A stretch of DNA of 25,523 nucleotides from an uncultured archaeon (GTDB lineage Archaea > Thermoproteota > Nitrososphaeria > Nitrososphaerales > Gagatemarchaeaceae), in assembly GCA_963817525.1 (NCBI GenBank), contig CAWFOU010000010.1, forward strand, positions 1 through 25,523, given 5' to 3'. The position numbers and the translations under genes were made by a program. Below are positions 3,228 through 21,286 of the stretch, one piece after another. How positions within the stretch are numbered: the stretch's first letter is position 1; every line of letters starts with the position of its first letter. Under the pieces are notes generated by a model, which was not told the origin of the DNA, ran no database searches, and saw only the letters and a program-made list of their open reading frames with translations.

Positions 3228-3568
3228 CTAACCGACGCGGCCCCGCATACAACGATGGGATTAGGCGCACGTTCCAGAACAGGCCCCAGCATATCGCAAG
3301 GGTCGGGATAGGCAAGCCCCACGCGAACAACAACCGCGTGGAGCGGTTGAACGGGACGCTCCGCGAGCGGGTGAAGGTTCAACGCGGCTGGAAGTCGATG
3401 AAGACGCAGCTCGCCGAGGGCGCGAGGATTCAGTATAACTTCGTCAAGCCGCACATGGCCTTGGAGAATCAGACCCCGGCGGACGCGGCGGGCGTTGGAG
3501 TCGAAGGCAAGGACAAGTGGATGGGCCTGCTAAAGGGAGCCATCACCCAAGCCCGGCGAGACCCGTAA
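3228..3568 (+). pseudogene. IS6-family DDE transposase, C-terminal fragment (element A)
   Basis: Near-identical protein to 7785-8126 (GIRRTFQNRPQHIA.VGIGKPHANNNRVERLNGTLRERVKVQRGWKS); 5' part missing. Confidence 0.88.
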
Positions 3569-4197: not shown

Positions 4198-4251
4198 AGC
4201 ATCACCGGTCATGGGACAGCCCTCCAAATCACCGGTCTATGGGACAGAGTC
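4198..4251. repeat. Right terminal repeat of IS6-like element A (two CACC-N6/7-TGGGACAG sub-repeats)
   Basis: agcATCACCGGtcATGGGACAGccctccaaATCACCGGtctATGGGACAGagtc; homologous to 5973-6022, 8579-8630 and (inverted) 6030-6080. Confidence 0.88.
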
Positions 4252-4738
4252 CAGAAGAGCATGGCGTATCTCTGGAACATCATGGACAGGAAGACGAGGT
4301 TCTTGATCGCCTCGCGGCTCTCCGAGAAGCGCGATTCCATCGGGGCGATGGCCGCATTCAACCGTGCGATTAGGGTTGCACACGGGAGCGAGCCTGAAAG
4401 GGTCTTGACGGAGCGGCCTGCATACAACGAAGGGATTAGGCGCACTTCCAGAACAGACCAGCACATCGCGAGGGTGGGAATCGGGAAGCCCACGCCAAAA
4501 CAACCGAGTAGAGAGGTTGAACGGGACGCTCCGCGAGAGGGTGAAGGTTCAGAAGAGGATGGAAGAGCATGAAGACCAACTCGCGGAAGGGCAGAGAATC
4601 CAATACAACTTTGTCAATCCATGCGCTCTTGATGGGCAGACTGCGGCCAAGTCGCTAGAATCGGAATAGAGGGAGAGAACAAGTGGATGGAATTGCTCAA
4701 GGCTCACTCAAGAGGACAGAAGGTTCTTCGAAGTATGA
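4252..4738 (+). pseudogene. IS6-family transposase fragment (element B), frameshifted and 5'-truncated by element A
   Basis: Starts right after the A end with cagaagagcatggc, matching 7632 onward; MAYLWNIMDRKTRFLIASRLSEKRD identical to element C; several indels. Confidence 0.88.
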
Positions 4739-6953: not shown

Positions 6954-8126
6954 ATGGAAACCCAGACTGGCAACAACTCGGACGCTCGGATGACGAGAGG
7001 CTTGGAGATTTCCAAGACCGCGACGATAGCGGAGAACGAGGACGGTAGCTTCACCGTCCCCTCTCAGACGAGCAATTCTTCTTACCAAGTCAGACTTCTC
7101 GGGCGCGACTTGGGTTTGCTCCTGTCCAGACTTTGAGAACCGAGCAGACCAGATAGAGATGTGCAAGCACGCCTTCGCGGTCAAGTTCTGGATTGACGTC
7201 AAGCGTGGAACTGCAAGAGGCACCAGAGCCGAAGGTCTTCGCCGACGACGCTGACCCAATGCGTGAAGTGTGGGAGCATCAGGGTGATTAGGTTCGGGAC
7301 ATACAACGGGAACCAGATTTGGAAGTGCAACGACTGTAAGACCAAGTTCCGCGAGCTCCCTCATCAAGAAGGTCCACTATTCCACCAGAGACGATTACCC
7401 TCACCCTCGACCTCTACTTTTCGGGGCTCTCGCTCCGAAAGATAACGCGCATCGCTGAACGACCACTTTGACATGAACCTCGGCAAGTCCACTGTCTACC
7501 GATGGATTGAGACTTTCGTGCCGAAGATTTCCGAATATGTGAACAGCTTGAAGCCCCAACTCTCGGACACCTGGCACGCGGACGAGCTTTTCGTGAAGAT
7601 GAAGGGCGGAGTGAAGGACACCCAATACAACCAGAAGAGCATGGCCTATCTCTGGAACATCATGGACAGGAAGACGAGGTTCTTGATCGCCTCGCGGCTC
7701 TCCGAGAAGCGCGATTCCATCGGGGCGATGGCCGCATTCAACCGTGCGATTAGGGTTGCACACGGGAGCGAGCCTGAAAGGGTCTTGACCGACGCGGCCC
7801 CTGCATACACCGAAGGGATTAGGCGCACGTTCCAGAACAGGCCCCAGCACATCGCCAAGGTAGGAATCGGGAAGCCACACGCCAATAACAACCGAGTCGA
7901 GAGGTTGAACGGGACGCTCCGCGAGAGGGTGAAGGTTCAGCGCGGTTGGAAGTCCATGAAGACCCAACTCGCGGAAGGCCAGAGAATCCAATACAACTTT
8001 GTGAAGCCTCACATGGCTCTCGATGGCCAGACTCCGGCTCAAGCGGCTGGACTCGCCCCGAAGGGCTGGATGGAGCTATTCACGGAAGCCTTAGAAGCAT
8101 CCGGCTCAACTTCAGGATCACAATGA
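6954..8126 (+). CDS. IS6-family DDE transposase with N-terminal SWIM zinc finger and zinc ribbon (frameshifted 5' half)
   Basis: FTVPSQT...WVCSCPDF...CKHAFAV (SWIM), C.KCGS...WKCNDC (Zn ribbon), HTH (LGKSTVYRWI), then WHADE...LWNIMD...VLTD...NNRVERLN in 7473-8126. Confidence 0.88.
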
Positions 8127-8578
8127 CAGCGAAGCGCGTTGTCATCCTCGCGGTTGCCGCCATCGTCGTAATCTTCGCCGCGACCGGCATATACTACTTG
8201 GTGCTTCCGCCCGGAGCCTCGAAGACCGTGACGATAGTTGCGACGGGCAGCCCTCCTGAAGGAAGCTTGGGCGCTCCCGAACAAGGCTTGGTTTTCGCCC
8301 CAGCGAACTTCACAGTCAGGGAGGGACAGCGTGTCACCCTCGTATTTGTTAATCGCGGAAGCGCTCCCCACGAACTTGTCATCCCTCAATTGGGCGTGGA
8401 CACCGGAGTGGTCAATGTAGGAGCGACGAAAAGCGTCTCCTTTGTCCCCAGCACGGTCGGCACGTTCTTCGATATGCAGCCATGTGGAACACCCGCTGCG
8501 GAATCGGCGGGTCTGCCTGGCTGCAACATTGAGGGATATGGCAACATTGAGGGATATGTGACAGTCTTGTCCCGGTAG
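8123..8578 (+). CDS. Cupredoxin-domain membrane or secreted protein (IS passenger)
   Basis: ATGA overlap with transposase stop; TM, then FAPANFTVREGQRVTLVFVNRGSAPHEL...FVPSTVGTF; stop abuts the IR. Confidence 0.82.
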   Translation: MTAKRVVILAVAAIVVIFAATGIYYLVLPPGASKTVTIVATGSPPEGSLGAPEQGLVFAPANFTVREGQRVTLVFVNRGSAPHELVIPQLGVDTGVVNVGATKSVSFVPSTVGTFFDMQPCGTPAAESAGLPGCNIEGYGNIEGYVTVLSR

Positions 8579-8630
8579 CATCACCGGACATGGGACAGCG
8601 TTTCAAATCACCGGGAGATGGGACAGAACC
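8579..8630. repeat. Right terminal inverted repeat of element C
   Basis: cATCACCGGacATGGGACAGcgtttcaaATCACCGGgagATGGGACAGaacc. Confidence 0.88.
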
Positions 8631-8664
8631 GCAATCGCGATATTTCACTCCTCACCGTAGAAGA

Positions 8665-8705
8665 AGTTAAAAGGCTTATATCCTCTGCCCGACCCACCGA
8701 ACCCA
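8665..8705 (+). promoter_or_regulatory. Archaeal BRE/TATA promoter of tes (probably leaderless transcript)
   Basis: AAAAGG-CTTATAT with the TATA box starting 31 nt upstream of ATG 8706. Confidence 0.65.
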
Positions 8706-10379
8706 ATGGCACAGATTGTTGACATCTCCCTAGACCTAAGGAAGGAAAGTGCAAAGGGTAGATTCATTCGACAGACGCAGTCCATTTGCCCAGACTGCAA
8801 CAAGATACTCCCGGCGATAGTTTTCGAGCGCGATAACAAGGTCTTCATGACCAAGACGTGCCCAGAGCACGGAGAGACAGAGGAGCTATACTTCGGCGAC
8901 TACCAGATGTACGCGAAGTTCGCCCGCTTCTGGAAGGACGGGAAGGGGACCCATGCGCCCAACGTGCCCATGGACGTCTGCTCCTGCCCGGCCAACTGCG
9001 GATTATGCTCCAATCACCTCTCCCACACGGGCCTGTCCAACATCATCATCACGAACAGGTGCGACCTGACGTGCTGGTACTGCTTCTTCTACGTCAAGAA
9101 GGGTCTCGAGGGCGCATACGTCTACGAGCCCACGATGGACCAGGTGAGGGAGATGGCCAGGACGCTCAAGTCCGAGAGGCCAGTCCCAGGTAACTCGGTC
9201 CAGCTCACAGGCGGCGAGCCGACCATCCGCCCGGAGCTCCCGGAGATCATCAGAATGATGCACGAGGAGGGCATCGACCACGTCCAGCTCAACACGAACG
9301 GCATCAACCTTGCGCTAGACCCGTCCCTCGCGGGGCGGCTACACGAGGCAGGTGTCTCCAACCTCTACATGTCGTTCGACGGCACTAGCCCGAAGACAAA
9401 CCCCAAGAACCACTGGGAGGCGCCCTACACGCTCGAGGCGTGCAGGAAGAACAACATCGGCGTCGTTCTCGTCCCGACTGTCATCAAGACTGTAAACGAC
9501 CATGAGCTCGGCTCGATCATCGACTTTGGGCACAAGTATCTCGGCACGGTCCACGCGGTCAACTTCCAACCAGTCTCGCTGACCGGCAGGATGACCAAGA
9601 AGGAGAGGGACAAGTACCGCATCACGATACCCGACTGCATCAAGAGGATCGAGGAGCAGACCAACGGCGACATCACGTCGGACGGCTGGTTCCCAGTCCC
9701 GTCGTGCTCTCCGCTGACGAGCTTCATCGAGGCCTTCACCAAGAAGGAGCAGTATGAGCTCTCGATACACTTCGCGTGCGGCGCGGGGACCTACGTCTTC
9801 GAGGACGCCGAGACAAAGAAGCTCGTGCCTCTGACGAACTTCGTCGACATCCAGGGGCTCATCGAGTATCTGGAGGAGAAGACGGAGGAGATCTACTCAG
9901 GCACCAACAGGTACGTGGTGGCCGGGAAGGTCCTCACCCAGATGTCCCGCTTCGTCAACAAGGAGAAGCAGCCCAAGGGCATGAGCTTCGCGAAGATGAT
10001 CACCAACGCGCTGATCAGGCACGACTACTCGGCCATCGGTGACTTCCACACGAAGAGCATGTTCATCGGCATGATGCACTTCCAAGACAAATATAATCAG
10101 GACGAGGAGAGGCTCCAACGCTGCGACATCCACTACCTCACCCCCGACCTGAGGATCATTCCCTTCTGCTCGTTCAACGTCATCCCCGAGTGGTACAGGG
10201 ACAAGATCCAGCAAAAGTACGGCCTGCCAATCGAGGCCTGGGAAGCGAAGAACGGGAAGAAGCTCGAGGACGGGCTCTACCGTGGCACCCTGAGGCGGGG
10301 CACCCACCACGCGGGCTGCGGCTGCGCGGTCGGCGAGCAGGGCGAGGAAGTCCACATCCAGCCTATCACAGGAACTTAG
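8706..10379 (+). CDS. tes: Tetraether lipid synthase (GDGT-MAS, MJ0619-type radical SAM enzyme)
   Basis: N-terminal rubredoxin-like SICPDC...KTCPEHG, CPANCGLC..H cluster motif, radical SAM CDLTCWYCF, QLTGGEPT, NFQPVSLTGR, HFACG, C-terminal RCDIHY.TPD.RIIPFC. Confidence 0.92.
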   Translation: MAQIVDISLDLRKESAKGRFIRQTQSICPDCNKILPAIVFERDNKVFMTKTCPEHGETEELYFGDYQMYAKFARFWKDGKGTHAPNVPMDVCSCPANCGLCSNHLSHTGLSNIIITNRCDLTCWYCFFYVKKGLEGAYVYEPTMDQVREMARTLKSERPVPGNSVQLTGGEPTIRPELPEIIRMMHEEGIDHVQLNTNGINLALDPSLAGRLHEAGVSNLYMSFDGTSPKTNPKNHWEAPYTLEACRKNNIGVVLVPTVIKTVNDHELGSIIDFGHKYLGTVHAVNFQPVSLTGRMTKKERDKYRITIPDCIKRIEEQTNGDITSDGWFPVPSCSPLTSFIEAFTKKEQYELSIHFACGAGTYVFEDAETKKLVPLTNFVDIQGLIEYLEEKTEEIYSGTNRYVVAGKVLTQMSRFVNKEKQPKGMSFAKMITNALIRHDYSAIGDFHTKSMFIGMMHFQDKYNQDEERLQRCDIHYLTPDLRIIPFCSFNVIPEWYRDKIQQKYGLPIEAWEAKNGKKLEDGLYRGTLRRGTHHAGCGCAVGEQGEEVHIQPITGT

Positions 10380-10440
10380 GGAATCGATACGCCGGTCAAG
10401 TTCGAAACCGGCAGCTTGCACATTATGAATGTGCTAGAAT

Positions 10441-10478
10441 TGATTCTGGAAAGACCGGACCTGGTTTCTCCAGAATCA
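10441..10478. terminator. Hairpin between convergent tes and LAGLIDADG genes
   Basis: TGATTCTGGA ... TCCAGAATCA perfect 10-bp stem. Confidence 0.45.
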
Positions 10479-10505
10479 GCGCATCAAATCAGGCTCTCGC
10501 CTACC

Positions 10506-11693
10506 CTAGGATTTAGAAAAAGAGGGAGGGGCAGGAATGAGATCTCGTCGGATTGCATGTCGAGTTAGCTGCCCGTATCTATAGCTCCCAATGATTGGAT
10601 TGAAGAGAGATAGTCGAACTGCGTCACGTGTTAGGATTCTGACTTGGCTTGGTTGATTTTGTGGATAGGTGTGAGCGTCGAGTCCTAGAGTTTCGAAGAG
10701 TTCTTTGTAAAAGGCGGAGTTCGGGACGCTAGCGATTTCGGCATAGTATCCATGTATATCCACATACCCATCAGAGTCGGCGAGTCCCTGAAGGAATGCT
10801 ATGATTAGACTCCTGGGACACCTCTTCATCCATGCCATGTCGAGTTTGTGAGTGCTGGTTGTCTCTCCTTCCTTCAAACCGAGACAGACCTGGAACGCCC
10901 ACGTAATGACATTGCTCGAGATCGAATTCCATCGAACCACTTTGCCATCCGATGCAATCTGGTGCGACGGGATTCCTACGCACTCCAGCGCCAACTGCAC
11001 GTACCTTAGCACTCTGAAGTTGCTCTCCCTGTGCGTCATCATAGTCGCCATTGACGTCTTGCGGTAGTGTCTTGCCCTGGGCTCGTTGTGGACATACTGC
11101 TTTCCCGCGTCTCCCACCAAGAACCCCAACAAGAACCAGAACAACTCCGCCTTGTGCTCCTGAGCCCACGCGCTCGTCAGTCCGAAGAAACGAAGTGCTT
11201 CGCTCTCCTCACTGACCGGCGGGAACTGCTTCAGGAACTCGAGAATCTCGTCATAGGAGCGGATGCGTTCTGGGACCTGCAGAGTTCTCGGGTAGGGATT
11301 GGTCGGTTTGGGCGTGCGGTCGAATATCCACTTCCGTCCTTCCAGAGGCCTTCCAATTCGCGCAGAGTTGAGGTACATCTGCACGAGGTTCGGGCGCCAG
11401 TTGAAGCCGGAGAGCGTCCTCGAGACTACCGCCTGGTCGATGCGGTGCTTTGATGCGATTGTTTTTTGTTCCTGTCCTTGTGATCTGAGCCTCCACACGT
11501 CCCCGTGCCTTTTCCACTGCGCGATGTCCCTTTCGTCGTAGACGACGTTCCAAAACTCCTCCATGAACTTCAGGTCGTTCCATGACGAGAGCTTCTCACG
11601 AAGCAGCTCTAGCTCATCGGGCGTGTACTTCGGCCAGGGCGTGCGGTCTTTCCATTCTCCCTTGCTTTTTCCGTATCCGCCTTTCCGCATCAA
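10506..11693 (-). CDS. Free-standing double-motif LAGLIDADG homing endonuclease-like protein with N-terminal HTH
   Basis: WFLLGFLVGDAG and AFLQGLADSDGYV motifs about 110 aa apart; HTH-like GQEQKTIASKHRIDQAVVSRTL; no intein splicing motifs. Confidence 0.85.
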   Translation of the reverse strand: MMRKGGYGKSKGEWKDRTPWPKYTPDELELLREKLSSWNDLKFMEEFWNVVYDERDIAQWKRHGDVWRLRSQGQEQKTIASKHRIDQAVVSRTLSGFNWRPNLVQMYLNSARIGRPLEGRKWIFDRTPKPTNPYPRTLQVPERIRSYDEILEFLKQFPPVSEESEALRFFGLTSAWAQEHKAELFWFLLGFLVGDAGKQYVHNEPRARHYRKTSMATMMTHRESNFRVLRYVQLALECVGIPSHQIASDGKVVRWNSISSNVITWAFQVCLGLKEGETTSTHKLDMAWMKRCPRSLIIAFLQGLADSDGYVDIHGYYAEIASVPNSAFYKELFETLGLDAHTYPQNQPSQVRILTRDAVRLSLFNPIIGSYRYGQLTRHAIRRDLIPAPPSFSKS

Positions 11694-11780
11694 TTCTTTT
11701 GCGCATTTCCATATTTAGTCGCCACCTACGTCGGATTGATACCGGAAAACACGCGCACTGACAGTGATGGTAATCTATCC

Positions 11781-11813
11781 TGCGGCTTCAACGTCATCCC
11801 CGAGTGGTACAGG
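11781..11813 (+). repeat. tes 3' remnant 1
   Basis: TTCAACGTCATCCCCGAGTGGTACAGG (11787-11813) is a 27-bp exact copy of 10173-10199 (FNVIPEWYR). Confidence 0.92.
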
Positions 11814-11922
11814 AATTTCCTGGCAATGCGCGAATAGCCTATTCGCATCAGACGACCAGACTGGAGAATCAGCCGGAGGTATCTACGCTTATATCTCCGG
11901 TCCTACTTCTTCGATGACTCGG

Positions 11923-12207
11923 ATGTCGTCGGACGCATCTAAGGAGGAGTCGACGGAGTGGGCGAATCGGGTCTTGGACGCGCGCATCTTCAAAGCGAAA
12001 GGGGTCTCGCCAAACTCTCGTTGGGCAAAGAACTACTCAAAGATGATGCGCGAACCTCTGAAGCCCGAAGAATGGCGCGCATTCCAGGAGAAGCTCAAGG
12101 ACCCCACTTTCGCCGAGGAATGGATGGATAAAGTGATTTCTGGATGGCATCGCCGGAGGACACCGGTCTCCTCAAGGCAACCCTCGAACAGGTCGAAGTC
12201 TCGCTAA
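11923..12207 (+). CDS. Hypothetical small protein A1 (two-gene module, copy 1)
   Basis: CTTATAT box at 11888; C-terminus KLKDPTFAEEWMDKVISGWHRRR resembles 17002-17157. Confidence 0.65.
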   Translation: MSSDASKEESTEWANRVLDARIFKAKGVSPNSRWAKNYSKMMREPLKPEEWRAFQEKLKDPTFAEEWMDKVISGWHRRRTPVSSRQPSNRSKSR

Positions 12208-12332
12208 TTCGCAGGATACCTTTCGCCGCTCTCAGACGCCCGGAAACGTTGTGGGAAGAGTTCGCAATGCTTGACACTGTCCTTGAGTTGACAATGAAGC
12301 TCGCTCTACTATCTGCTCGAGCGCGAGCCTAA
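12144..12332 (+). CDS. Hypothetical small protein B1 (two-gene module, copy 1)
   Basis: Overlaps A1; LEQVE...PETLWEEFAMLDTVLEL resembles the frameshifted ORF at 17150-17318. Confidence 0.6.
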   Translation: MASPEDTGLLKATLEQVEVSLIRRIPFAALRRPETLWEEFAMLDTVLELTMKLALLSARARA

Positions 12333-12367
12333 GGAATAGAATCTAGTCGCGAGAAATGACCGTTGCG

Positions 12368-12424
12368 TCCCCGAGTTGGCGAGCAGGGCGAGGAAGCCAT
12401 ATCCAGCCGATCACCCGGGCCTAG
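12368..12424 (+). repeat. tes 3' remnant 2
   Basis: GGCGAGCAGGGCGAGGAAG-CCATATCCAGCCGATCACCCGGGCCTAG aligns to tes 10332-10379 (GEQGEE.HIQPIT..stop). Confidence 0.9.
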
Positions 12425-12708
12425 TCGGAACGCTCTGTCCCTAGGCTAGGCCTCTCTTGAGACATCTTTGTGCCTGGTCGACGTTAGTTGTGAACAGCGA
12501 ATCGACTGCACCGCTGAAATTGGGATTCCGACCCGTATGGGTTAATAATCTGACGAGAATTTGTAACAACTGCTATATACATCCGAACGCCCACTATCGC
12601 CTATGGCGTTCCCTGCCCACGAAGAGGGGATGGGCGCGGCGAGCGCCATCAACGTCTACGGAATCGTTTCCGCCTCCAGTCGGTTGCATGAGGCGGGAAA
12701 ACTAGCCT

Positions 12709-13716
12709 TTGACTTCAAACTTCCACCAATTTCTCAAGACAACGTCCCCCCGCAAGCGTACGAGTGAATCTCGTTTGGACCGCATCGACATCAAGGTGCT
12801 CGGGGGGCTGTCCCGTGGGACTTCCAGCATTGGAAGCCAACCCGTGTTGCAAGGTGTCTTTGGGAGGATTGCGAAGAGGCTTGTTCTTGACGAAGACACC
12901 GTCAGGAAGCGAGTAGACAGATTGGAATCTGCAGGAATATTTCGAGGATGGCAACTCGTGGTCAATCCGGGCGTTCTGGGGCTCAAATTATACGGCGCCC
13001 AGGTAACGGTTAGTCCGCAGCTGGGAATACAGGACGCAGTCCGCAAGATCATGCTTGTCCAAGGTGTTACATCAATCGCCTGCGAGGTGGTCGATACGCT
13101 CGGTATTGGAATAATCTGCGAAAACGAACTTGTCTTCAGAAATAGGATCGAACTAATCTCAGAGTTGGCGGGGACGAAAGAGTTAACGACATATGCGGTG
13201 AACTACCCACAACCAGAGGTCCAGCTGAGTCGCACGGACTGGCAAGTCATCAATGCGTTCAGACCGAATCCGTTGATTCGATACTCCGAGGTGGCCGACA
13301 AGCTTGGGATTTCAAGCAGGACAGTCCAGAGGAGGCTGAAGAAGCTCGCCGTGAGCAAGGCCATCTTCTTTCGACCAATAATCGATGTCAGTCGCTTTGA
13401 GGGTGCATCGTCAGTCTCTCTCTTTGTGTCCTACGCCTCAGATGAGTTCAAACGCGAGGTTGACCGAAGCATATTCGGAAGATTCGAGGACTACATCCTT
13501 CGGGCTGGATGGGGAAGTGCAAGCCATGGCTATTTCGAGTTCATCATCCCGAACATCCATGTCGTAAAGGAGATTGTCGATTGGACCCGCAGCCTGCGGG
13601 GAGTCAAAGAATTGCGATTGAATCTCAAATACGACAGCCTTAGCCTTTACGAAAACGCGCTGGATGAAATCATTGCCAGGCAAGGTCAAGGCCCGTCGCC
13701 CCGCCGGCCGAACTGA
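12709..13716 (+). CDS. AsnC/Lrp-family transcriptional regulator with two HTH domains
   Basis: LDRIDIKVL...IAKRLVLDEDTVRKRVDRLESAG and LSRTDWQVI...YSEVADKLGISSRTVQRRLKKL. Confidence 0.88.
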   Translation: MTSNFHQFLKTTSPRKRTSESRLDRIDIKVLGGLSRGTSSIGSQPVLQGVFGRIAKRLVLDEDTVRKRVDRLESAGIFRGWQLVVNPGVLGLKLYGAQVTVSPQLGIQDAVRKIMLVQGVTSIACEVVDTLGIGIICENELVFRNRIELISELAGTKELTTYAVNYPQPEVQLSRTDWQVINAFRPNPLIRYSEVADKLGISSRTVQRRLKKLAVSKAIFFRPIIDVSRFEGASSVSLFVSYASDEFKREVDRSIFGRFEDYILRAGWGSASHGYFEFIIPNIHVVKEIVDWTRSLRGVKELRLNLKYDSLSLYENALDEIIARQGQGPSPRRPN

Positions 13717-13968
13717 AAAACTACCATTGGTCTCGTCGGCGCTGCAATGAAGACGGAGGCAGTTCGTATCCCTGCTATAGGCTCGAGTCAGCCTAGAGAG
13801 CCCCCGTGTCGGCGCCCCCCGCCTACTGGGGCTCCATGCGCTAGCACGGATAGCCTGTTCACCTAATCCGAGTCGGGGAATACGAATACCGACCCTTGTC
13901 GTGTCGGAATTCCCTACCATGTCGCGGCGAATGCATAATATCCGATTGCTCGACTTTTTTTATCACGG

Positions 13969-16491
13969 ATGACTAACGTATTACCGAAACGAAACAAGAA
14001 CGCATTTACGAAAAGCATTAAGAAAACATTAAGCAACACATCAATCCGCGCAATCGCACTAAGCCTTCTTTTCGTCGTCTCAGGGATTGGAGCGTCAGTG
14101 CTCCTCAACCCAGCCGCAGCCACGCCCAACACGGCAGCGCCCTCGGCCGCGGCCCCCGTTGCAGCCCAGCCGGCGCTGACGCAGGCGGAGGCGAATTGGG
14201 AGTTCCCGAACGGCAACGCCTTCAACCAGGACTACAACCCCCAAAGCCAGATTAACAGCTCCAACATCCAGTACCTGGGGCTGAGCTGGATCTATCCGTT
14301 GCCCACCCAGCCGACCTCCTTGTCGGCTCTGTCAGCTTTCGGCGGTGACATCGGAATGGCGATTATCATCGCCAACGGCACTGCCTTCGCAACCACGCAG
14401 TTCGACGAGACCATCGCCTTCAACGTGGCCAACGGCGACGTGCTCTGGACCTTCCTCACGCCTCTCGCGGTCAACCAGACCGCAGGCGAGTCCACAGGCC
14501 CGGTCCCGCTGCACGACCACGACGGCAACGAGTGGTTCTCTACCGCGACGTTCGGCTCCGGCGTGTCCGGCCCGACGCTGTGGTTCCAAGGAGAGAACAA
14601 CCACGTCTACGCCATCGACGCCCTCAATGGCAAACAGGAGCTGAACTTCAGCGACTTCACCGGCCTCAACATGGTGGCAGGCAACAACCCGCAGACCATA
14701 TACAACGGAATTGGCGCCTCGAACATCGTCGTCAACCCGACACTGGGCATCCTGGTGTCTGGGCATGACGCCGAATCAGACGCCGACAACGGGAGGGGCT
14801 TCTTCGCGGGATGGAACCTAAACACCAACCCGGTCACCATGAAGTGGATCACCTACGACGTTCCTCCCCAACCAGGGAGCCCAACGGCGTCGCTGAACCC
14901 CTACTTCGACCAGCAGTTGATCGCCAACATGACCACCGCGACCACCTTCTACCCTGGTGAGAACGGCTCTACCAACGGGTACACCACCCCGACGGAAGTG
15001 GCAGGAGGCCTGCTCGTCAACAACAACGACGACATCGTCGTCAACTGGAAGGCGCTGTCTCCGACTCAGCTCAACACAACCCTCTACAACGACTGGGGAC
15101 AGTCCGGCCAGACGGCCCAGTGCCTCGCCATCGACGGCGGCGGCTCTACGGGCTCCACAGGCTCCGCATGGGGCGGCGCTTGGCTCGTGGGCTCTGGCCA
15201 ATCGGCGGGGATGGTCTTCCTAGGGACGAACAACAAGGACCCGTTCACAGGGCCTTGCGACCCAGGACCTGACCTCTGGTCAGCTTCAGTCCTCGGACTC
15301 AACATCACCACCGGGCAGATAGTCTGGGGCTTCCAGGCAACCACGCACGACGTCTGGGACTACGACTGCTCCTGGTACCAAGCACTGGCCAACGTCACCC
15401 TCTCGGGCGTCAACACCGAGGTCATCCTGAAGACGTGCAAGGACGGATACCTCTTCGAGATCAATGCCGTGACTGGCAACCTCATCTGGGCGTGGGACCC
15501 ACCCGCGAACTCAGAGCAGTCAGGACCAAGCAGATGTCCAGTCTGCTACCCGATGAACCCGATGAACGCATCACAGACCGGCATCGACTTCCCATCCGCA
15601 CTCACCAACTGCTACCCAGCATACACCATCGCCTGCGACAGGGGCTCTCAGCCTCCGTTCCTCCAGTGGCCATCTGAACTGGCCGGCTTCGAGGACGAGC
15701 AGGCGTTCGACCCAGCAACCGGGGACATCTACGCCACCTCGCACGTGGTGCCCCTGTACATGGGTTACTTCGGCCTGAACGCGTCCACCTACTTCACCTC
15801 CACGGGTGAAGGAGGCGTGCCGTGTCCGAGCTGCGGAACCCTGTACGACAACGCTACACTCTGGTCAATCAACGCACAGACTGGAGCCGTCAACTGGGAC
15901 CACCAAGTTGCGAATCTGCAGGGATACCGTGGCCAGACCGACGTCAGCGGTAACGTCGTATTCAACGTCTTGTCCTCGGGCGACATCGTCATGACCAACG
16001 CCGCGACAGGCGCACTCATCAGAGACTACTACATCGGCGCGCCGATGGACCAGGGAGTGACGATCGGAGCGTCAGTAAACGGTCAGGAGTACATCCTGAC
16101 GCCGGTAGGGACGTGCAGCATCGAAGCCGTAGGGACGTGCCCTGGCACAACGCCAGGAGACATCGTGGCCCTGAGCCTGCAGAACCTCCCGCCTTCCACC
16201 GCGAGCACTAGCACAACCACAGTGACAGCAACATCCACCACTACAGCGACTTCCACAACGACAGCAGTATCCACGACCACCGCCACGGCATCGGGCGCTA
16301 CCGTCACGGTAACGACTGGAGCCAACGGGCAGACAACCACAGTCACCATGAGCGGAGTGACCTCGACGGTCACCTCCACATCCACAACATCAAGCAGCAA
16401 CACAGCGCTATACGCAGTAGCTATAGTCGCCGTGATCTTCATCATAGCTACGGGCTATCTTGCCATGCGTGGCAGGAAGCCCGCCTCCTAA
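13969..16491 (+). CDS. Membrane-anchored PQQ-dependent dehydrogenase-like beta-propeller protein
   Basis: Signal peptide; NWEFPNGN...YNPQSQINSSNIQYLGLSW, Trp-docking repeats (AFNVANGDVLW, GLNITTGQIVW, EINAVTGNLIW), FQATTHDVWDYD, KTCKDGYLF; S/T stalk and C-terminal TM with basic tail. Confidence 0.9.
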   Translation: MTNVLPKRNKNAFTKSIKKTLSNTSIRAIALSLLFVVSGIGASVLLNPAAATPNTAAPSAAAPVAAQPALTQAEANWEFPNGNAFNQDYNPQSQINSSNIQYLGLSWIYPLPTQPTSLSALSAFGGDIGMAIIIANGTAFATTQFDETIAFNVANGDVLWTFLTPLAVNQTAGESTGPVPLHDHDGNEWFSTATFGSGVSGPTLWFQGENNHVYAIDALNGKQELNFSDFTGLNMVAGNNPQTIYNGIGASNIVVNPTLGILVSGHDAESDADNGRGFFAGWNLNTNPVTMKWITYDVPPQPGSPTASLNPYFDQQLIANMTTATTFYPGENGSTNGYTTPTEVAGGLLVNNNDDIVVNWKALSPTQLNTTLYNDWGQSGQTAQCLAIDGGGSTGSTGSAWGGAWLVGSGQSAGMVFLGTNNKDPFTGPCDPGPDLWSASVLGLNITTGQIVWGFQATTHDVWDYDCSWYQALANVTLSGVNTEVILKTCKDGYLFEINAVTGNLIWAWDPPANSEQSGPSRCPVCYPMNPMNASQTGIDFPSALTNCYPAYTIACDRGSQPPFLQWPSELAGFEDEQAFDPATGDIYATSHVVPLYMGYFGLNASTYFTSTGEGGVPCPSCGTLYDNATLWSINAQTGAVNWDHQVANLQGYRGQTDVSGNVVFNVLSSGDIVMTNAATGALIRDYYIGAPMDQGVTIGASVNGQEYILTPVGTCSIEAVGTCPGTTPGDIVALSLQNLPPSTASTSTTTVTATSTTTATSTTTAVSTTTATASGATVTVTTGANGQTTTVTMSGVTSTVTSTSTTSSSNTALYAVAIVAVIFIIATGYLAMRGRKPAS

Positions 16492-16513
16492 TTTTAGGAG
16501 ATACAACAAACCA

Positions 16514-16551
16514 GGCCCCCCGACCGGGGGCATCTCCCCTTTTTGCTTTTC
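16514..16551 (+). terminator. Hairpin plus T-tract downstream of the PQQ gene
   Basis: GCCCCC-cgacc-GGGGGC followed by CTTTTTGCTTTT. Confidence 0.55.
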
Positions 16552-16695
16552 AAAAACGGCCGCCCGGGCCGGGGCACCCCGCCTTCGTCATCAGAATCGC
16601 TGGGGACCCCGAGGCCCGGGCAACTCCACGGAGTGCTCTATTAAGCTCTTGTCGACAAGCGGAAACGCTCGATGAGCTATGTCAGAGCCTTGCTG

Positions 16696-16913
16696 CCCTT
16701 CCCAACTTCAAGGTCATCCACGAGTGGTACAGGGACAAGATACAGCAAAAGTACGGCCTGCCCATCGAGGCATCGGAAGCGAAGAACGGGAAGAAGCTCG
16801 AGGACGGGCTCTACCGTGGCACTCTAAGGAGGGGCACGCACCACGCTGGCTGCGGCTGCGCTGTGGGCGAGCAGGGCGAGGAAGTCCACATCCAGCCGAT
16901 TTCGGGGACCTAG
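16696..16913 (+). pseudogene. tes 3' remnant 3 (complete last ~70 codons)
   Basis: Colinear with tes 10161-10379; encodes FKVIHEWYRDKIQQKYGLPIE...GEQGEEVHIQPISGT-stop with no start codon. Confidence 0.96.
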
Positions 16914-17001
16914 ACGGGTCGGGCCTCCCAACGCCAGAAGCCTCTCTATTTCCGTCGCTCCGGATGTGCGCTTATATTTCCCCTCCTCTTCTTTACCGAG
17001 A

Positions 17002-17157: not shown

Positions 17158-17318
17158 CGAGAACGACAGGACGGAAGTTCGACTGCTGGTCGAGCGGCTA
17201 GAACCGGTGATGCTTTGGAGAGTTGCTACCGCAGCGCGGCTTTCCTCCTGAGACCCTTCCCGACGAGATTCTGCTGTTGGAAAGCGTAACGGTGCTGCGG
17301 AAAGAGCTCAACCCCTGA
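17150..17318 (+). pseudogene. Hypothetical small protein B2 (one extra base between about 17213 and 17246)
   Basis: GTG start overlapping A2 stop; MSDENDRTEVRLLVERLEPVML...PETLPDEILLLESVTVLRKELNP. Confidence 0.55.
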
Positions 17319-17329
17319 ACTATTTTGCA

Positions 17330-17376
17330 AGGGCGAGGAAGTCCACATCGAGCCAGTCGGGAGTGCATCAACCTGA
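17330..17376 (+). repeat. tes 3' remnant 4
   Basis: AGGGCGAGGAAGTCCACATC 20-bp exact match to tes 10339-10358, continuing GEEVHIEPVGSAST-stop. Confidence 0.85.
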
Positions 17377-17425
17377 CTTCGCTAAGGTTCGAATGCGTCA
17401 GGTTGCGCTTGATCTGCTAGGCAGT

Positions 17426-17965
17426 TCACTTGGAGCCAGCGACCAGTGATTCGAATTCGATAACACACAAGTTTTCTGAAACCGTCTCCCTGCGGACCTT
17501 CCCCAAGAGCCTTACAAATATTGCTTCCAGCGCCCCTGCGTAGTATACTGACCAGTTTCTACCCATCTTCTGCCCGACCACTATGATGTGCTTTCTCTCC
17601 TTTACGGTATGCTCGAAGGTGAATCTGCCGCCATAGGCTCCGAGGTTCTTCATCAGCCTGTCAGCCGACTCGACTGACACGGTGGAGTATTCCGCCAACA
17701 GGTTGGGCAAGAACAGCTCACGCCCAGCCCACCTCCCCATCTCACGGGCCTTCTCCTCGCTTTGCTCGGCCATCAGCTTCACCAGGAGCAAAGACGGGAC
17801 CGAGACAAGCCCCCTGTTCGATAAGGCCCTGTCCCACTCAACGTACTTCCTGAGGGCCTTGTTCATGACCTGGCTATTGGAAAGTCTCTCCTCCTTTGCG
17901 ATCTTCTCCATCGCCTCGTCGATGTCGGTCTCGACCCTGAATGTGCGGGCCTTGCTCCTCTTCAA
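17426..17965 (-). CDS. Ribbon-helix-helix protein with C-terminal V4R-like ligand domain (thaumarchaeal paralogue family)
   Basis: RTFRVETDIDEAMEKIAKEERLSNSQVMNKALRKYVEWD...MGRNWSVYY...IEFE. Confidence 0.82.
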   Translation of the reverse strand: MKRSKARTFRVETDIDEAMEKIAKEERLSNSQVMNKALRKYVEWDRALSNRGLVSVPSLLLVKLMAEQSEEKAREMGRWAGRELFLPNLLAEYSTVSVESADRLMKNLGAYGGRFTFEHTVKERKHIIVVGQKMGRNWSVYYAGALEAIFVRLLGKVRRETVSENLCVIEFESLVAGSK

Positions 17966-18504
17966 TCGACCCTCGACGACTTTGGCATGTCGAATTCGAG
18001 CGCCACGAGCTCTTCGGTCATCCTGGACTTGGTGTTAAGACCCAAAGTCTTGCCGAACAGTGATTCAACTACCCCCATGTAGAAGGCGGACCATTTCATT
18101 CCTCCTGAGTGACGGATTGTGATGACGTTCTTCGAATCTGAGGTCACGTGATGGAATTGGAACCTGGCCATATAGCGCGAAATGAGTTTGATGACCTCCA
18201 GAGCGGAGGTCAGCGTCACCTCGCCGGAGATAGACGTCATGAACGGCATCAAGACATCGCTGTCTACTGATTCTCCGAGGCTCCTGGCTTCTTCTAATGT
18301 CTGCTTGTCCATGAGTCTGCCCAAGGTTATGGGGCTTATCACGACCAGGGCCGCTCTCTCAGCAAGCCCGTCCCACTCCACCAATCTCCTCAGAGCTCTC
18401 CCGGCGATGACGTTGACCGATTCTCCTGATTCGTCGGCCATCCGCTTAAGGGCCGCATCGACATCCTCGTCGAGCCTAAGCGTGCGGGTTACGCTCCCTG
18501 ACAC
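17962..18504 (-). CDS. Ribbon-helix-helix plus V4R-like domain protein
   Basis: VTRTLRLDEDVDAALKRMADESGESVNVIAGRALRRLVEWD...IRHSGGMKWSAFY; GTG start chosen (ORF is open to 18552). Confidence 0.82.
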   Translation of the reverse strand: MSGSVTRTLRLDEDVDAALKRMADESGESVNVIAGRALRRLVEWDGLAERAALVVISPITLGRLMDKQTLEEARSLGESVDSDVLMPFMTSISGEVTLTSALEVIKLISRYMARFQFHHVTSDSKNVITIRHSGGMKWSAFYMGVVESLFGKTLGLNTKSRMTEELVALEFDMPKSSRVD

Positions 18505-18621
18505 AGTTTCCTTTCTGGACCAACTTCCGTATATGTATTCGCTTGCGTACAAATGACTCCGCTTGTAAACCTAGAGTACTTCTTGAATGGTCGGCATCCC
18601 AAACGAAGGGAACCAGAAAGC

Positions 18622-19026
18622 ATGACGGACAACCAGAGGAAGGAGGATGTCACCTACGGGGCTGCCAGTCAAGTCATCAAGGCCCTCTTCGACTCGGACA
18701 GGCGCATCCGTTATGGCGCAGTTATCGGCGAAAAAGGAGAAGAAATCGTCGGAGGAATGAGGCCAGGAATCAAGTCGCTCGAATCCGAACGCGAGAGCAG
18801 CAGGCTCAGGATACAGACACTCATAGGCATGGCGATCAACCGGAATTGGAACGAACTGCTCGGAGATGCCGACTACATAATCGTGCATAGAAGCAAGATA
18901 GTCGTCTTCATCTTTCCTCTATCCGGCATGAAGTCGCTGCTAGTGTCTGCCGAGCCAGACTACCCATTGAAGAGGCTGGGCGAAATATCTGACGCTGCCC
19001 AGGCTATCCCGAAAGAGCTGCGGTGA
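18622..19026 (+). CDS. Roadblock/profilin-like (DUF6659-type) protein
   Basis: DRRIRYGAVIGEKGEEIVGGMRPGIKSL...LGDADYIIVHRSKIVVFIFP...LLVSAEP. Confidence 0.8.
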   Translation: MTDNQRKEDVTYGAASQVIKALFDSDRRIRYGAVIGEKGEEIVGGMRPGIKSLESERESSRLRIQTLIGMAINRNWNELLGDADYIIVHRSKIVVFIFPLSGMKSLLVSAEPDYPLKRLGEISDAAQAIPKELR

Positions 19027-19029
19027 CCA

Positions 19030-19728
19030 TTGACCAATGACGAGTTGGTCAGCCAGTCAATCCTGAGCGGGTTGAAGGCTACCGGCCACGAAACTATGCA
19101 ATTGGTCCTCGACGTCTTGCGGACCCGCTATGGATTCACTCTGGAAGACGATGCGAAAGATCCGGTGAGACTTGGAAAAGGACTCAGAGGAATACTCGGA
19201 GGGGCTGGAGCCCGAACGGTCATCGACAGAATCCTCGAAGACTTACCCGATCAAAGTTCTCCTCCGGAGTATTACATCAGATTCATGGATGGGCTGAAGG
19301 CCTACGGGGAAAGCCTATCTTCCAAACCGGACGACGAGGCCGACAGAGGACTTGCGCCCGGGAACGTGCTGAAGCGGCCTAAAGGGGCCTTCCAGGTCCC
19401 ATTGAAGGGGTTCCCGCCTGACTTTACGCAGAAGATGGTTGAAGCGGTAGTCAGAGGACTTTCACCTTTGGGCGACTCAGGGAGAGAGGCGGCCATTTAC
19501 CTCCTAGAGCAGCAGTACAACGTCAGTGTGACAGACGCTTTCACAAATCCAAGGAGTTTTCTTTCAGGCCTAACAGGAATGTTCGGGCTCGGCGCACATT
19601 ATTTGGAATCTTCTATCATAGACGAGATAACCGGCGCATTTGCTTTGTCCGCAAGGCCTGATTCGCTGCCAGTGGCCGTCAGGGAGGCAGGCCGAAAATA
19701 CAAAAAGGCCGGAAAAGGGTCAGAGTAA
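19030..19728 (+). CDS. Protein with two small helical archaeal output-type domains (DUF3227/NitrOD5-like)
   Basis: Two repeats: GLKATG...LRTRYG...DPVRLGKGLRGILG.GARTVI and GLSPLGDSGREAAIYLLEQQY...NPRSFLSGLTGMFGLGAHYLE. Confidence 0.7.
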   Translation: MTNDELVSQSILSGLKATGHETMQLVLDVLRTRYGFTLEDDAKDPVRLGKGLRGILGGAGARTVIDRILEDLPDQSSPPEYYIRFMDGLKAYGESLSSKPDDEADRGLAPGNVLKRPKGAFQVPLKGFPPDFTQKMVEAVVRGLSPLGDSGREAAIYLLEQQYNVSVTDAFTNPRSFLSGLTGMFGLGAHYLESSIIDEITGAFALSARPDSLPVAVREAGRKYKKAGKGSE

Positions 19729-19834
19729 GATAACTCAACTACCGCGTGGTCAATGCAGAGAACCGATTACAGAGTCGACACCCCCGAGCGGGGAAGGTCG
19801 GCTCAGAATCGAGGGCAGTCCAAGGGGTTGGCTT

Positions 19835-20356
19835 CTAGGCCTCAAAACGAGCGATGCAAACCGCGTCAGTGCACTCGAACTTCACCTGCTTTGATAGGAG
19901 ATCGTGTAATATCTCTTTCACCAATCCCTGGTAGAAGTTCGTCCATTTTCGACCTTGATCGTGTCTAAACACGAGAATGTGCACGTTTCCTTCCTGCACG
20001 TCGTCAAATACAAACCTATCCGTGTAGAAGGCGACTCTTTTGAACGTGGAGATGAACGCGGTCGCGGTGACCTCTCCGAAGAGATACTCGGTCAGAGGCC
20101 TGGCGAACTCCCTCGCTGTGAACCTGCCCAGTTCGGTGCACTTGTCGGCGTCGAACTCGTCAATCAGTTTTTTGACCATTATCTCCGGCACTTCCATATA
20201 CCCTATCTTCCTCCCGGGGATATCCCACTCGATCAGCTTCCTCATCGTCCTGTTAATCAAGAAGTTTGTCGTCACCTTATCTTCCCTTGCTCTCCTCTGA
20301 ATCGCCTCGTCCAGGTCAGAGTCCAGCCTCACTGTCCTCGTCCTGGTCTTGGGCAT
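19835..20356 (-). CDS. Ribbon-helix-helix plus V4R-like domain protein (third paralogue)
   Basis: TRTVRLDSDLDEAIQRRAREDKVTTNFLINRTMRKLIEWD...FRHDQGRKWTNFY. Confidence 0.82.
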   Translation of the reverse strand: MPKTRTRTVRLDSDLDEAIQRRAREDKVTTNFLINRTMRKLIEWDIPGRKIGYMEVPEIMVKKLIDEFDADKCTELGRFTAREFARPLTEYLFGEVTATAFISTFKRVAFYTDRFVFDDVQEGNVHILVFRHDQGRKWTNFYQGLVKEILHDLLSKQVKFECTDAVCIARFEA

Positions 20357-20513
20357 CCCCTGTCCGCGTATCAAGCCTTCAATTTACGTGTTCCTTTGTG
20401 CCCTAATGTGTGTATCAGAGTACAAAGTGCGCATCCGACTCGATATCTCACCTGAAGTAGACGGAGCCCACTTAGCCTCCCCCAGATTCAGCTGCACTAG
20501 CCTGGATTGTGCC

Positions 20514-20924: not shown

Positions 20925-20946
20925 TGCCGAGAGCATCAGTGCGACC

Positions 20947-21252: not shown

Positions 21253-21286
21253 GGGGGTTCAGTTCCTCGCGGTAATGGCTCGTAAC

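Follow-up and report, generated by a model that had tools for sequence, protein, structure and literature searches.

The open reading frame (ORF) behind the tetraether lipid synthase-like gene tes of an uncultured Gagatemarchaeaceae archaeon (GCA_963817525.1, contig CAWFOU010000010.1, positions 1-25,523; this 25,523-nt stretch is referred to as the window) appears, at moderate confidence, to encode an intact HTH-like LAGLIDADG homing endonuclease (HEG) that resides in a 1.4-kb selfish cassette and would install a replacement gene end; this reading covers the first block behind tes only. The cassette explains its own small insertion but probably not the complete series of duplicated gene ends. 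The features of the locus are collected in Table 1.

Table 1. Features of the tes locus, with coordinates in the window
Feature	Position	Strand	Evidence or remark
tes, tetraether lipid synthase-like radical SAM gene	8706-10379	+	Pfam Radical_SAM 5.1e-26, Zn_ribbon_HMPTM 6.5e-20
Live tes tail, repeated downstream as remnants	10166-10379	+	Repeat families D2-D6, blastn
126-nt spacer between convergent stop codons	10380-10505	.	Read from sequence
1,435-nt cassette, absent from allelic contigs C7 and C14	10381-11815	.	blastn, junction alignment
Free-standing HTH-like and double-motif LAGLIDADG ORF, 395 aa	10506-11693	-	ORF list, translation, alignment, AF2
LAGLIDADG motif 2, FLQGLADSDG	10767-10799	-	D308 codon 10770-10772
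LAGLIDADG motif 1, LLGFLVGDAGK	11100-11138	-	D195 codon 11109-11111
Helical N-terminal domain (aa 1-178) with an HTH-like segment of three helices (aa 54-95)	11160-11693	-	AF2 secondary structure
TAAATAT, possible archaeal TATA box, inside cassette	11711-11717	-	About 21-24 nt upstream of start codon
tes fragment (remnant 1a), copy of tes 10166-10199	11780-11813	+	34 nt, 31/34 bases identical
Older tes-end remnant	12375-12428	+	Also in HEG-less allele, C7 43302-43251
Long tes-tail remnant	16689-16917	+	Repeat families, blastn
Short tes-end remnants	21282-21325 and 17325-17363	+ (21282-21325)	Repeat families, blastn

The ORF starts with a TTG codon directly followed by ATG, as seen in the ORF list and the translation. 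It is placed between genes with own start and stop codons and is not embedded in a Hint domain or an intron. The sequence-only reading of this DNA had described a free-standing double-motif LAGLIDADG ORF that has kept both acidic residues, lies outside any intein or intron, is convergent with tes and is bounded by the live tes tail and a first tes remnant. All of this was borne out. D195, contained in motif 1 (FWFLLGFLVGDAGK), and D308 in motif 2, the putative catalytic Asp residues, were invariant in 20 of 20 relatives in the family alignment. No intein domain was found in the ORF, LAGLIDADG_3 being its only Pfam domain match, no Rfam family was detected between positions 8000 and 18000, and no tRNA gene was found in the window. 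The first remnant is the 34-nt tes copy listed in Table 1. The spacer between the two convergent genes carries short inverted repeats (e.g. GCACATT-ATG-AATGTGC near 10419-10435) that may form a terminator, and the TAAATAT motif is a putative promoter element of the LAGLIDADG ORF.

With 21.1 bits, the Pfam LAGLIDADG_3 match of the ORF itself fell below the cut-off of 22.5, and a search of the PDB by sequence with the 395-aa protein returned no significant match; a precomputed PF14528 match is present in many of its homologues. The AF2 model of the protein (pLDDT 89.5, pTM 0.88) gave 59 PDB matches at E <= 0.001 in Foldseek, the top match being I-DmoI (2vs7_G, E 1.2e-6, TM 0.69 normalised to the target). 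We are confident that the protein, as modelled, adopts the pseudo-dimeric alpha-beta-beta-alpha-beta-beta-alpha LAGLIDADG fold. For the HTH label, the support is indirect. The N-terminal domain has a weak NarL-type match (E 0.22), and its model had no significant Foldseek match (best E 1.1), the top matches being HTH proteins; in longer relatives, the same LAGLIDADG core is preceded by Pfam HTH modules, and L7Ae-type relatives have a C-terminal HTH-like extension. A small ORF at 11914-12204 was considered as a homologue of the HEG N-terminus and rejected (E 0.22).

The ORF is part of a presence/absence cassette, as seen from the contigs C7 and C14, which were co-assembled in the same assembly and represent the same locus. 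Positions 8602-10380 match C7 45641-43863 and positions 11816-16679 match C7 43861-38995, so that the segment missing from C7 and C14 consists of exactly the ORF plus the region of the 34-nt tes fragment. Remnant 1a thus marks the far edge of the cassette, where it is joined directly to shared downstream DNA, and it has an ACAGGAA microhomology in common with the end of tes. Since the remnant at 12375-12428 is shared with the HEG-less allele, it does not belong to the cassette event. Both cassette junctions were bridged by soil-metagenome contigs with 0 differences (three runs from one study). The GC content is 0.53 for the cassette and 0.57-0.62 for the genome. The Tes protein is identical to that of the C7 allele over 557/557 residues, while 78 of 1779 bases differ. 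Mismatches to C7, looked at as a sign of co-conversion, did not increase towards the cassette (13 over the final 480 nt of tes versus 78/1779), which is uninformative. One RNA run (X7) covered the tes of a relative only and left the cassette uncovered, which is uninformative on expression.

Of 36 genomes of the same family, 26 have homologues, compared with none of 24 genomes from other families of the order; the homologues are limited to a single family of soil Nitrososphaerales. At E <= 0.001, the HEG family comprises 468 clusters at 50% identity. Among 31 loci, seven adjoin tes or lie within 10 kb downstream of it, nine adjoin EF-1alpha, nine lie between ndk and L7Ae and six are found elsewhere, at least two of the latter converging on tRNA genes. 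At tes, EF-1alpha and L7Ae, the ORFs are convergent with the host gene, and these three main sites correspond to clades with 99-100 SH-aLRT support. The tree also contains two genus-incongruent placements (95*, 96*). A HEG copy is carried by 13 of 30 L7Ae loci. In-frame stops interrupt 8 of 56 homologue matches, and truncated fragments are present as well. Hallmarks of mobile HEGs are thus present in the form of site-tied lineages, sporadic distribution and degenerate copies. A metagenome scan for the HEG yielded two loci, both on contigs that end at the upstream side of the HEG, which places the far junction out of view. Compared with a 77%-identical metagenome copy, the ORF has a dN/dS of 0.17; for the same locus pair, dS is 0.84 for the HEG and 0.73 for the adjacent tes, values so similar that long co-residence fits as well as recent mobility.

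A duplicated gene end beside another core gene, as looked for in the sequence-only reading, does exist in this very genome. The HEG copy at EF-1alpha lies within a clean insertion of 2.07 kb, on whose two sides 75 nt of the gene tail are repeated, and this HEG copy is absent from the site in the relatives G020, G012, G022 and G006. At both tes and EF-1alpha, the endonuclease ORF is therefore bracketed by the live gene end and a displaced copy. At another locus (L016), a perfect repeat of 42 nt, corresponding to the 5' half of a tRNA, lies on both sides of a HEG copy, and flanking repeats were seen at 5 of 32 short loci. The neighbourhood survey thus confirmed that homologues lie downstream of, and convergent with, tes, EF-1alpha, L7Ae and tRNA genes, but its second expectation, duplicated tails at these places, largely failed, as tail duplicates were absent from 10 of 11 HEG loci of relatives and present at one. 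The EF-1alpha case also did not bear out a foreign live end with a native displaced end: the live tail is identical to that of G020 over about 50 nt, and the remnant is the more divergent copy.

Each HEG lineage keeps to the end of a single, highly conserved gene, be it tes, EF-1alpha, L7Ae or a tRNA gene. In the mechanism that we propose, the enzyme would break cassette-free alleles in or beside this gene end, and repair from a cassette-bearing copy would bring in the cassette along with a new end for the gene. The former gene end, now displaced, would stay on the far side and then decay or be deleted. Such an end replacement would account for the 34-nt tes fragment described here and for the 75-nt EF-1alpha repeat. 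The strategy would be to replace the gene end rather than to splice, as mobile ORFs of fungal mitochondria do. What remains of the tes-tail array would represent a separate, genus-wide insertion hotspot in which the cassette is one tenant. Counting against the model are the scarcity of tail duplicates at the HEG loci of relatives, the convergent orientation of the ORF, which differs from the fungal cases, the live EF-1alpha tail being closer to relatives than the remnant, and the lack of any substitution that sets HEG-bearing apart from HEG-free tes or EF-1alpha alleles and could explain how the resident allele escapes its own enzyme.

It is possible, though unlikely, that the nuclease gene is a passenger only, a further selfish or decaying piece of cargo, and that the nuclease takes no part in its own spread at tes, the 3' hotspot being served by another mechanism such as an unrecognised or trans-acting recombinase or Campbell-type insertion of tes-tail circles. 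At least three tes-tail copies occur in 11 of 23 genomes of the genus, and in 8 of these 11 neither a tes-type HEG nor a fragment of one was found; likewise, the HEG-less C7/C14 allele has the other tes remnants. Such arrays without a HEG fit a passenger well, as do the typical island cargo of the array blocks (PIN, HicA, RM enzymes, GNAT and beta-propeller surface proteins) and the position of the tes fragment at the far edge of the cassette, which is like that in other blocks. A self-immunity signature was not found either: a comparison of seven HEG-bearing with eight HEG-free tes alleles revealed no HEG-diagnostic bases, and no HEG-linked substitution was found in EF-1alpha tails. Against a mere passenger stand the placements of the family at EF-1alpha, L7Ae and tRNA genes, which are without arrays and which a tes-specific hotspot cannot explain. 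Moreover, the site-specific clades and the kept catalytic residues speak for selection on a nuclease activity that is site-specific. Tyrosine recombinases were found neither near this locus nor near five other arrays, and no recombinase was among the 25 listed of the 94 Pfam families found in 137 array ORFs.

Two further readings give the nuclease a larger role than the cassette model does. In the first, which we regard as quite unlikely, the tes 3' end would be a platform opened by HTH-LAGLIDADG cuts at a few fixed positions in tes, with the enzyme supplied by a resident copy or by incoming DNA. Repair from diverged donors would replace the gene end and capture the toxin-antitoxin, restriction and surface-protein cargo behind it, resulting in integron-like arrays without a recombinase, and the same would happen in miniature at EF-1alpha, L7Ae and tRNA genes. 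In the second, which follows the sequence-only reading in taking the ORF, or its lineage, as the engine of the array and which we hold to be decidedly improbable, repeated cuts in tes, diverged donors and an illegitimate far join would stack tails and cargo, the HEG being lost from older blocks. The left boundaries of the long remnants are indeed sharp and recurrent, and the flanks upstream of them are unrelated. Among 16 independent junctions, five fall in tes 10089-10099, three in 10119-10123 and four in about 10147-10166; the last cluster includes both long remnants of the window, the left boundary of the remnant at 16689-16917 (about tes 10155-10166) being close to that of remnant 1a. Uniform simulations matched this clustering in 812 of 100,000 cases over 9900-10290 and in 7,586 of 100,000 over 10089-10290. 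On the cargo side of the 16 junctions, conserved sequence was limited to two orthologous pairs. Remnants and live tails share 88-91% nucleotide and about 96% amino acid identity, and their differences are mostly synonymous, as expected of displaced functional tails. HEG debris is present in the tes islands of three genomes: a frameshifted copy plus two to three fragments in G015, a C-terminal fragment in G007 and, in G004, a HEG fragment that abuts a tes fragment.

The role as engine of the array was not supported by the wider comparison. A profile search of 16 array loci and of the C7 allele detected no trace of the HEG, and one genome (G014) has eight tail copies and no match to the HEG. Conversely, arrays are lacking at EF-1alpha and L7Ae, where HEGs reside in many genomes; a single genome out of 23 in the genus has a duplicated EF-1alpha tail, though HEGs are common at this gene. 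Most tes remnants are gene-end pieces of 40-75 nt with other boundaries. The predicted contrast between a resident (TGC TCG TTC) and a remnant-type allele (TGC GGC TTC) was contradicted as well, for the HEG-free allele has the resident TGC TCG TTC.

WhiA is a LAGLIDADG-derived transcription factor with a C-terminal HTH and without the catalytic Asp, and a domesticated DNA binder of this kind, regulating or otherwise serving the neighboring conserved gene, would share with the archaeal ORF a LAGLIDADG scaffold combined with an HTH; L7Ae-type relatives resemble WhiA further in their C-terminal HTH-like extension, and the extra HTH domains of relatives fit this reading. The fold matches include WhiA (3hyj_A, E 1.9e-5), and the position beside the same gene across genera, the low dN/dS and the dS similar to that of tes would be equally expected of a domesticated gene, but this alternative is highly improbable given that both catalytic Asp residues are invariant, that the family is patchy, with presence and absence even inside one assembly, that pseudogenes and fragments occur and that two placements are incongruent with the genera.

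Returning to the selfish cassette, we compared it with known systems. Archaeal LAGLIDADG endonucleases are known from inteins, rRNA introns and tRNA introns, and a literature search of titles and abstracts found no sizeable free-standing archaeal LAGLIDADG family. I-DmoI is encoded in an rRNA intron. The archaeal protein, as modelled, resembles it in the double-motif pseudo-dimeric fold with acidic residues in equivalent motifs; unlike I-DmoI, its ORF is free-standing and twice as long, with 13-16% identity. Seg and Mob of phage T4 are free-standing homing endonucleases of the GIY-YIG or HNH type and lie intergenically beside a conserved gene. Such phage HEGs are inherited by co-conversion after cutting a naive genome, with no gene-end duplication. 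The archaeal gene shares the intergenic position beside a conserved gene and differs in that it is LAGLIDADG, chromosomal and accompanied by a duplicated gene end.

A close parallel is found in fungal mitochondria. According to the part of the source considered here, mobile ORFs (mORFs) are free-standing LAGLIDADG or GIY-YIG ORFs inserted in the 3' portion of conserved genes, as in atp6 of Allomyces macrogynus and atp6, atp9, cox2 and nad3 of Glomus sp.; they bring a replacement C-terminal coding piece, the native piece remains downstream and unexpressed, and their mobility is ascribed to cleavage of ORF-less alleles (PMC3630166). As far as that description goes, the tes and EF-1alpha cassettes are alike in having a LAGLIDADG ORF between the live gene end and a displaced copy. 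They are unlike the organellar mORFs in residing on an archaeal chromosome, in the HTH-like N-terminal domain and in targeting tes, EF-1alpha, L7Ae and tRNA genes. Furthermore, mORFs are co-oriented or in phase with the host gene whereas the archaeal ORF is convergent, most archaeal family members are without a detectable remnant, and the live EF-1alpha tail is not the divergent copy. Integrated elements of Thaumarchaeota offer a second comparison. In the portion of that report considered here, 14 of the 68 elements insert at the 3' ends of genes, where element DNA can restore the end of the reading frame, tandem insertions at one site are known, and the elements encode integrases or casposases, with no LAGLIDADG or homing named in that text (PMC6563490; Krupovic et al., 2019). 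Within the same bounds, the 3'-distal insertion into a gene is a common trait; unlike in these elements, a tyrosine recombinase was not found near the tes locus. Our verdict is that the cassette represents an archaeal, chromosomal version of a homing element whose type is already known.

The members of the HEG family lie behind essential chromosomal genes and would sometimes carry a replacement gene end. If cleavage proves true, the strategy of fungal mitochondrial mobile ORFs would extend to archaeal chromosomes, and the family would offer natural nucleases for long sites, with HTH domains as modular additions. In that case, the enzyme would also give a testable origin for breaks at the island hotspot that occurs across the genus beside a tetraether-lipid gene in relatives of soil ammonia oxidizers.

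The ORF convergent with the tetraether lipid synthase-like gene tes (8706-10379, plus strand; radical SAM and HMPTM zinc ribbon domains in Pfam) is encoded on a complete 25.5-kb contig (C10) of a 2.8-Mb assembly of 15 contigs with 8.75% estimated contamination; the stop codons of the two genes are 126 nt apart. It is an intact LAGLIDADG gene, referred to here as the HEG. Residues G194, D195, K198, S307, D308 and G309 are invariant in a 20-sequence alignment of its family, and the AlphaFold2 model built from that alignment reached a pLDDT of 89.5 and a pTM of 0.88. In a Foldseek search, the C-terminal 190-200 residues superposed on I-DmoI (2vs7_G, E 1.2e-6; TM 0.69, normalised to the target), followed at lower rank by PI-SceI, the TliVMA intein endonuclease domain and WhiA. 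Pfam matched LAGLIDADG_3 alone (21.1 bits, slightly below the 22.5 cut-off) and a sequence search of the PDB gave no significant match. As no Hint domain (Pfam), no surrounding Rfam family and no adjacent tRNA gene were found, the sequence-only observation of a double-motif LAGLIDADG ORF outside inteins and introns stands. The label HTH-LAGLIDADG holds for its second part and is weaker for its first. The N-terminal 178 residues have a confident predicted fold (pLDDT 88.9), a structural search with this domain returned nothing significant (best E 1.1, HTH proteins among the top matches) and a NarL-type sequence match had an E of 0.22. Longer relatives carry HTH_23, HTH_28 and Sigma70_r4 (Pfam) upstream of the same LAGLIDADG core and no Pfam intein domains. 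We infer that the product has nuclease activity.

Features of the HEG and its cassette in the window
Feature	Position	Strand	Remarks
LAGLIDADG ORF	10506-11693	-	translation of 395 residues
LAGLIDADG motif 1, LLGFLVGD195A	Asp codon 11109-11111	-	read from translation
LAGLIDADG motif 2, LQGLADSD308G	Asp codon 10770-10772	-	read from translation
Cassette	10381-11815		spacer, ORF, TAAATAT element and 34-nt tes fragment; absent from C7 and C14
TAAATAT element	21-24 nt before ORF start codon		inside cassette
34-nt copy of tes 10166-10199	11780-11813		86 nt upstream of ORF start

Two further versions of the tes locus, on contigs C7 and C14 of the same assembly, probably stem from co-assembled strains. 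Window 8602-10380 is 95.6% identical to C7 45641-43863, and window 11816-16679 is 90.7% identical to C7 43861-38995; 78 of 1779 bases differ between the window and C7 tes alleles, and all 557/557 residues of Tes are identical. On both C7 and C14, what the window has after 11815 begins directly behind the tes stop codon, and the window-specific piece is therefore the cassette of the table. Thus, the ORF sits in a 1.4-kb presence/absence cassette, the GC content of which is 53%, compared with 57-62% for the contigs. Logan contigs of a single soil-metagenome study (three runs) bridged both cassette junctions with 0 differences; these contigs may derive from the source sample and hence not be independent. 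The 34-nt tes fragment directly adjoins downstream DNA common to the window and C7/C14. Because the heptamer ACAGGAA is present both at the end of this fragment and at the end of tes, the join can be explained by a microhomology deletion, which would have removed the middle of a once-complete old tes tail and left the 34-nt fragment. A predicted contrast between a resident TGC TCG TTC and a remnant-type tes allele failed, as the HEG-free C7 and C14 read TGC TCG TTC like the occupied allele. No base tracked HEG occupancy among 7 occupied and 8 empty tes alleles or among 8 occupied and 5 empty EF-1alpha alleles, and mismatches to C7 within tes were not raised near the cassette.

With the ORF protein as query, 26 of 36 further genomes of its family, Gagatemarchaeaceae, gave matches at E <= 1e-5, usually 2-4 per genome, and 24 genomes representing 19 other families of the order gave none. 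Its named database relatives are annotated 'hypothetical protein' and come from Nitrososphaerales or Thaumarchaeota; when 1.84 billion representatives were searched with a profile, 468 clusters reached E <= 0.001 and 230 reached E <= 1e-30. A survey of 31 loci placed homologues downstream of or convergent with tes and also at other core genes. The HEG is directly convergent with tes in five loci and lies 3.5 kb and 9.6 kb downstream of it in two more; nine copies converge on EF-1alpha, nine lie between ndk and L7Ae, convergent with L7Ae, and six are elsewhere. Two of these six, from further lineages of the family, converge on tRNA genes, in L020 (HEG 1315-2367, tRNA 1224-1300, gap 15 nt) and L023 (HEG 1339-2100, tRNA 1239-1333, gap 6 nt); L023 also contains a second, unrelated LAGLIDADG-like ORF at 557-1195. 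On two metagenome contigs, copies 77-80% identical to the ORF are likewise convergent with tes. In a tree of 29 intact copies (two frameshifted copies, those with stops and four same-place duplicates were left out), SH-aLRT support was 100 for the tes set and 99 each for the EF-1alpha and L7Ae sets. The family thus has site-specific lineages at conserved gene ends. The EF-1alpha copy of this genome groups with other genera and not with its own (95), and a genus-g6 copy is nested in the g1 L7Ae clade (96). The distribution is patchy: a copy is present at 13 of 30 L7Ae loci, once as a fragment, and absent from five where ndk is close by. In-frame stops occur in 8 of 56 family matches and several matches are truncated. 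Between the ORF and its 77%-identical copy, dN/dS is 0.17 and dS 0.84; dS of the adjacent tes for the same pair of loci is 0.73.

Gene-end repeats surround some HEG copies. Behind EF-1alpha of this genome, a 75-nt repeat of the gene's tail brackets a 2.07-kb insertion (G000:C1:195,2xx-197,46x, equal to L103 3246-5463), in which the ORF has a 452-aa paralogue, accompanied by an acidic ORF of 114 aa without Pfam match. The HEG-free genomes G020, G012, G022 and G006 align to both 75-nt copies and are collinear beyond them; the EF-1alpha remnant has CAG in place of the stop codon. In L002 (G000:C1), the EF-1alpha reading frame is split across two frames (77-496 and 247-1401), either by an assembly error or by a real frameshift. 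In L016 (G019:C90; 1341-1382 and 2400-2507), the HEG is flanked by a perfect 42-nt repeat, the 5' half of a tRNA gene that has an intron-like insert and that ARAGORN misses; here the 'head' of a gene, not its 'tail', would be duplicated. In L009, a 51-nt repeat flanks the HEG. The answer to the proposed survey for duplicated tails is mixed: they are present at the EF-1alpha copy of this genome, whereas 10 of 11 relatives' loci (4 tes, 7 EF-1alpha; 8-kb flanks) lack a second tail, G016 being the exception. Among 23 genomes of the genus, a duplicated EF-1alpha tail occurs in one only.

Downstream of tes, tail remnants and cargo blocks form an array. The 281-nt tes tail was matched in 19 of 23 genus genomes, with at least three copies in 11 and as many as 8, 8 and 11 in G012, G014 and G018. 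Array cargo is island-like (PIN, HicA, D12 methylase, ThaI, DpnI, GNAT, beta-propeller surface proteins), and no tyrosine recombinase was found near the arrays examined. A regular array follows tes in L051 (G014:C21:54000-67372) at ~8400-12890, where ~260-280-nt tail copies alternate with 0.7-2-kb blocks (HicA and PIN toxin genes, unknown ORFs). Two of its three long copies begin at tes position 10099; the third was scored at 10122, and its upstream flank matches the L050 junction, pointing to ~10096. Neither recombinase nor HEG was detected in it, and its layout resembles a cassette array in which a gene end serves as the repeat. In the window, an 840-aa PQQ-type beta-propeller gene (13969-16491) lies within the array; ten or more paralogues, 72-88% identical to it, are found on other contigs of the assembly (C1, C7, C8). 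The 4-kb block 17279-21279 (an RHH protein, two DUF6659 proteins, NitrOD5-like ORFs) is window-specific; C7 has instead 1.2 kb with a beta-propeller surface protein, and homology restarts exactly at remnant 21282-21325. A 97-aa ORF with a basic tail and no Pfam match (11914-12207, plus strand) is seen four times, in the window, C7, L052 and L059, each time directly behind a tail or remnant of tes. A secreted YVTN/NHL-type beta-propeller in L059 (6024-7064) runs into a tes-tail remnant and ends in ...YIQPVTGT, as does Tes; similar propellers recur in several arrays. A 119-nt tes-tail fragment (89% identity) lies at G000:C7:76346-76464, ~31 kb from the C7 tes on the gene's upstream side. Three related IS6/IS240-type DDE transposase copies or fragments are located upstream of tes in the window (3231-3492, 4251-4663, 7473-8126).

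Tes arrays exist without the HEG: the family profile found no trace of it in 16 array loci (13 genomes) or the C7 region, and G014 has no match to the ORF protein anywhere, an L7Ae-type HEG fragment lying beside its L7Ae. It appears unlikely to us that another agent made the hotspot and that the HEG only travels in it as a passenger. The sequence-only proposal that the HEG is the engine of the array was not borne out, and for the whole array we regard it as improbable. Besides the HEG-free array loci, the C7/C14 allele, which lacks the HEG, contains counterparts of the window remnants 12375-12428, 16689-16917 (in part), 17325-17363 and 21282-21325, and EF-1alpha and L7Ae host the HEG in many genomes yet show no arrays. 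Some observations do connect HEG and array. The tes island of G015 (L105 5012-7212, on G015:C8) holds a frameshifted tes-type HEG 9.6 kb downstream of tes and, on the other strand, two or three short LAGLIDADG fragments (E 4e-6 to 1e-3); that of G007 has a C-terminal HEG fragment (E 1.6e-35), and in G004 a HEG fragment abuts a tes fragment. In addition, the left boundaries of long remnants (window, L050-L058) are sharp and shared between genomes, and the cargo that adjoins them is unrelated; the many short remnants of 40-75 nt are bounded elsewhere. Of 16 junctions, counted after collapsing two orthologous pairs, five fall in 10089-10099, three in 10119-10123 and four in ~10147-10166, including both long window remnants. 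Under uniform placement, clustering of this degree arose in 812 of 100,000 trials for 9900-10290 and in 7,586 of 100,000 for the narrower 10089-10290, so that the boundary signal is suggestive only; it would point to at least one site-specific breakage or recombination point inside tes. A domesticated binder is very improbable, and the rest of the probability goes to something else.

The cassette architecture is that of fungal mitochondrial mobile ORFs as described in PMC3630166, where a LAGLIDADG or GIY-YIG ORF in the 3' part of atp6, atp9, cox2 or nad3 brings a foreign C-terminal piece, the native piece is displaced downstream, and the ORF-less allele of Allomyces atp6 is reported to be cleaved. 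Unlike in that account, the element here resides in an archaeal chromosome, its ORF is convergent with the host gene and has an HTH-like N-terminal domain, the target genes differ, and the live EF-1alpha tail is not the more foreign copy. Thaumarchaeal integrated elements use 3'-distal parts of protein genes in 14 of 68 cases, and the text searched (PMC6563490) mentions neither LAGLIDADG nor homing; among literature titles and abstracts, only intron, intein and unrelated papers came up for archaeal or Nitrososphaera LAGLIDADG genes that are free-standing. On balance, we favour by a modest degree a cassette that mobilises itself by homing and is responsible for its own block of the array, and that would thereby replace the end of the gene on which it converges.
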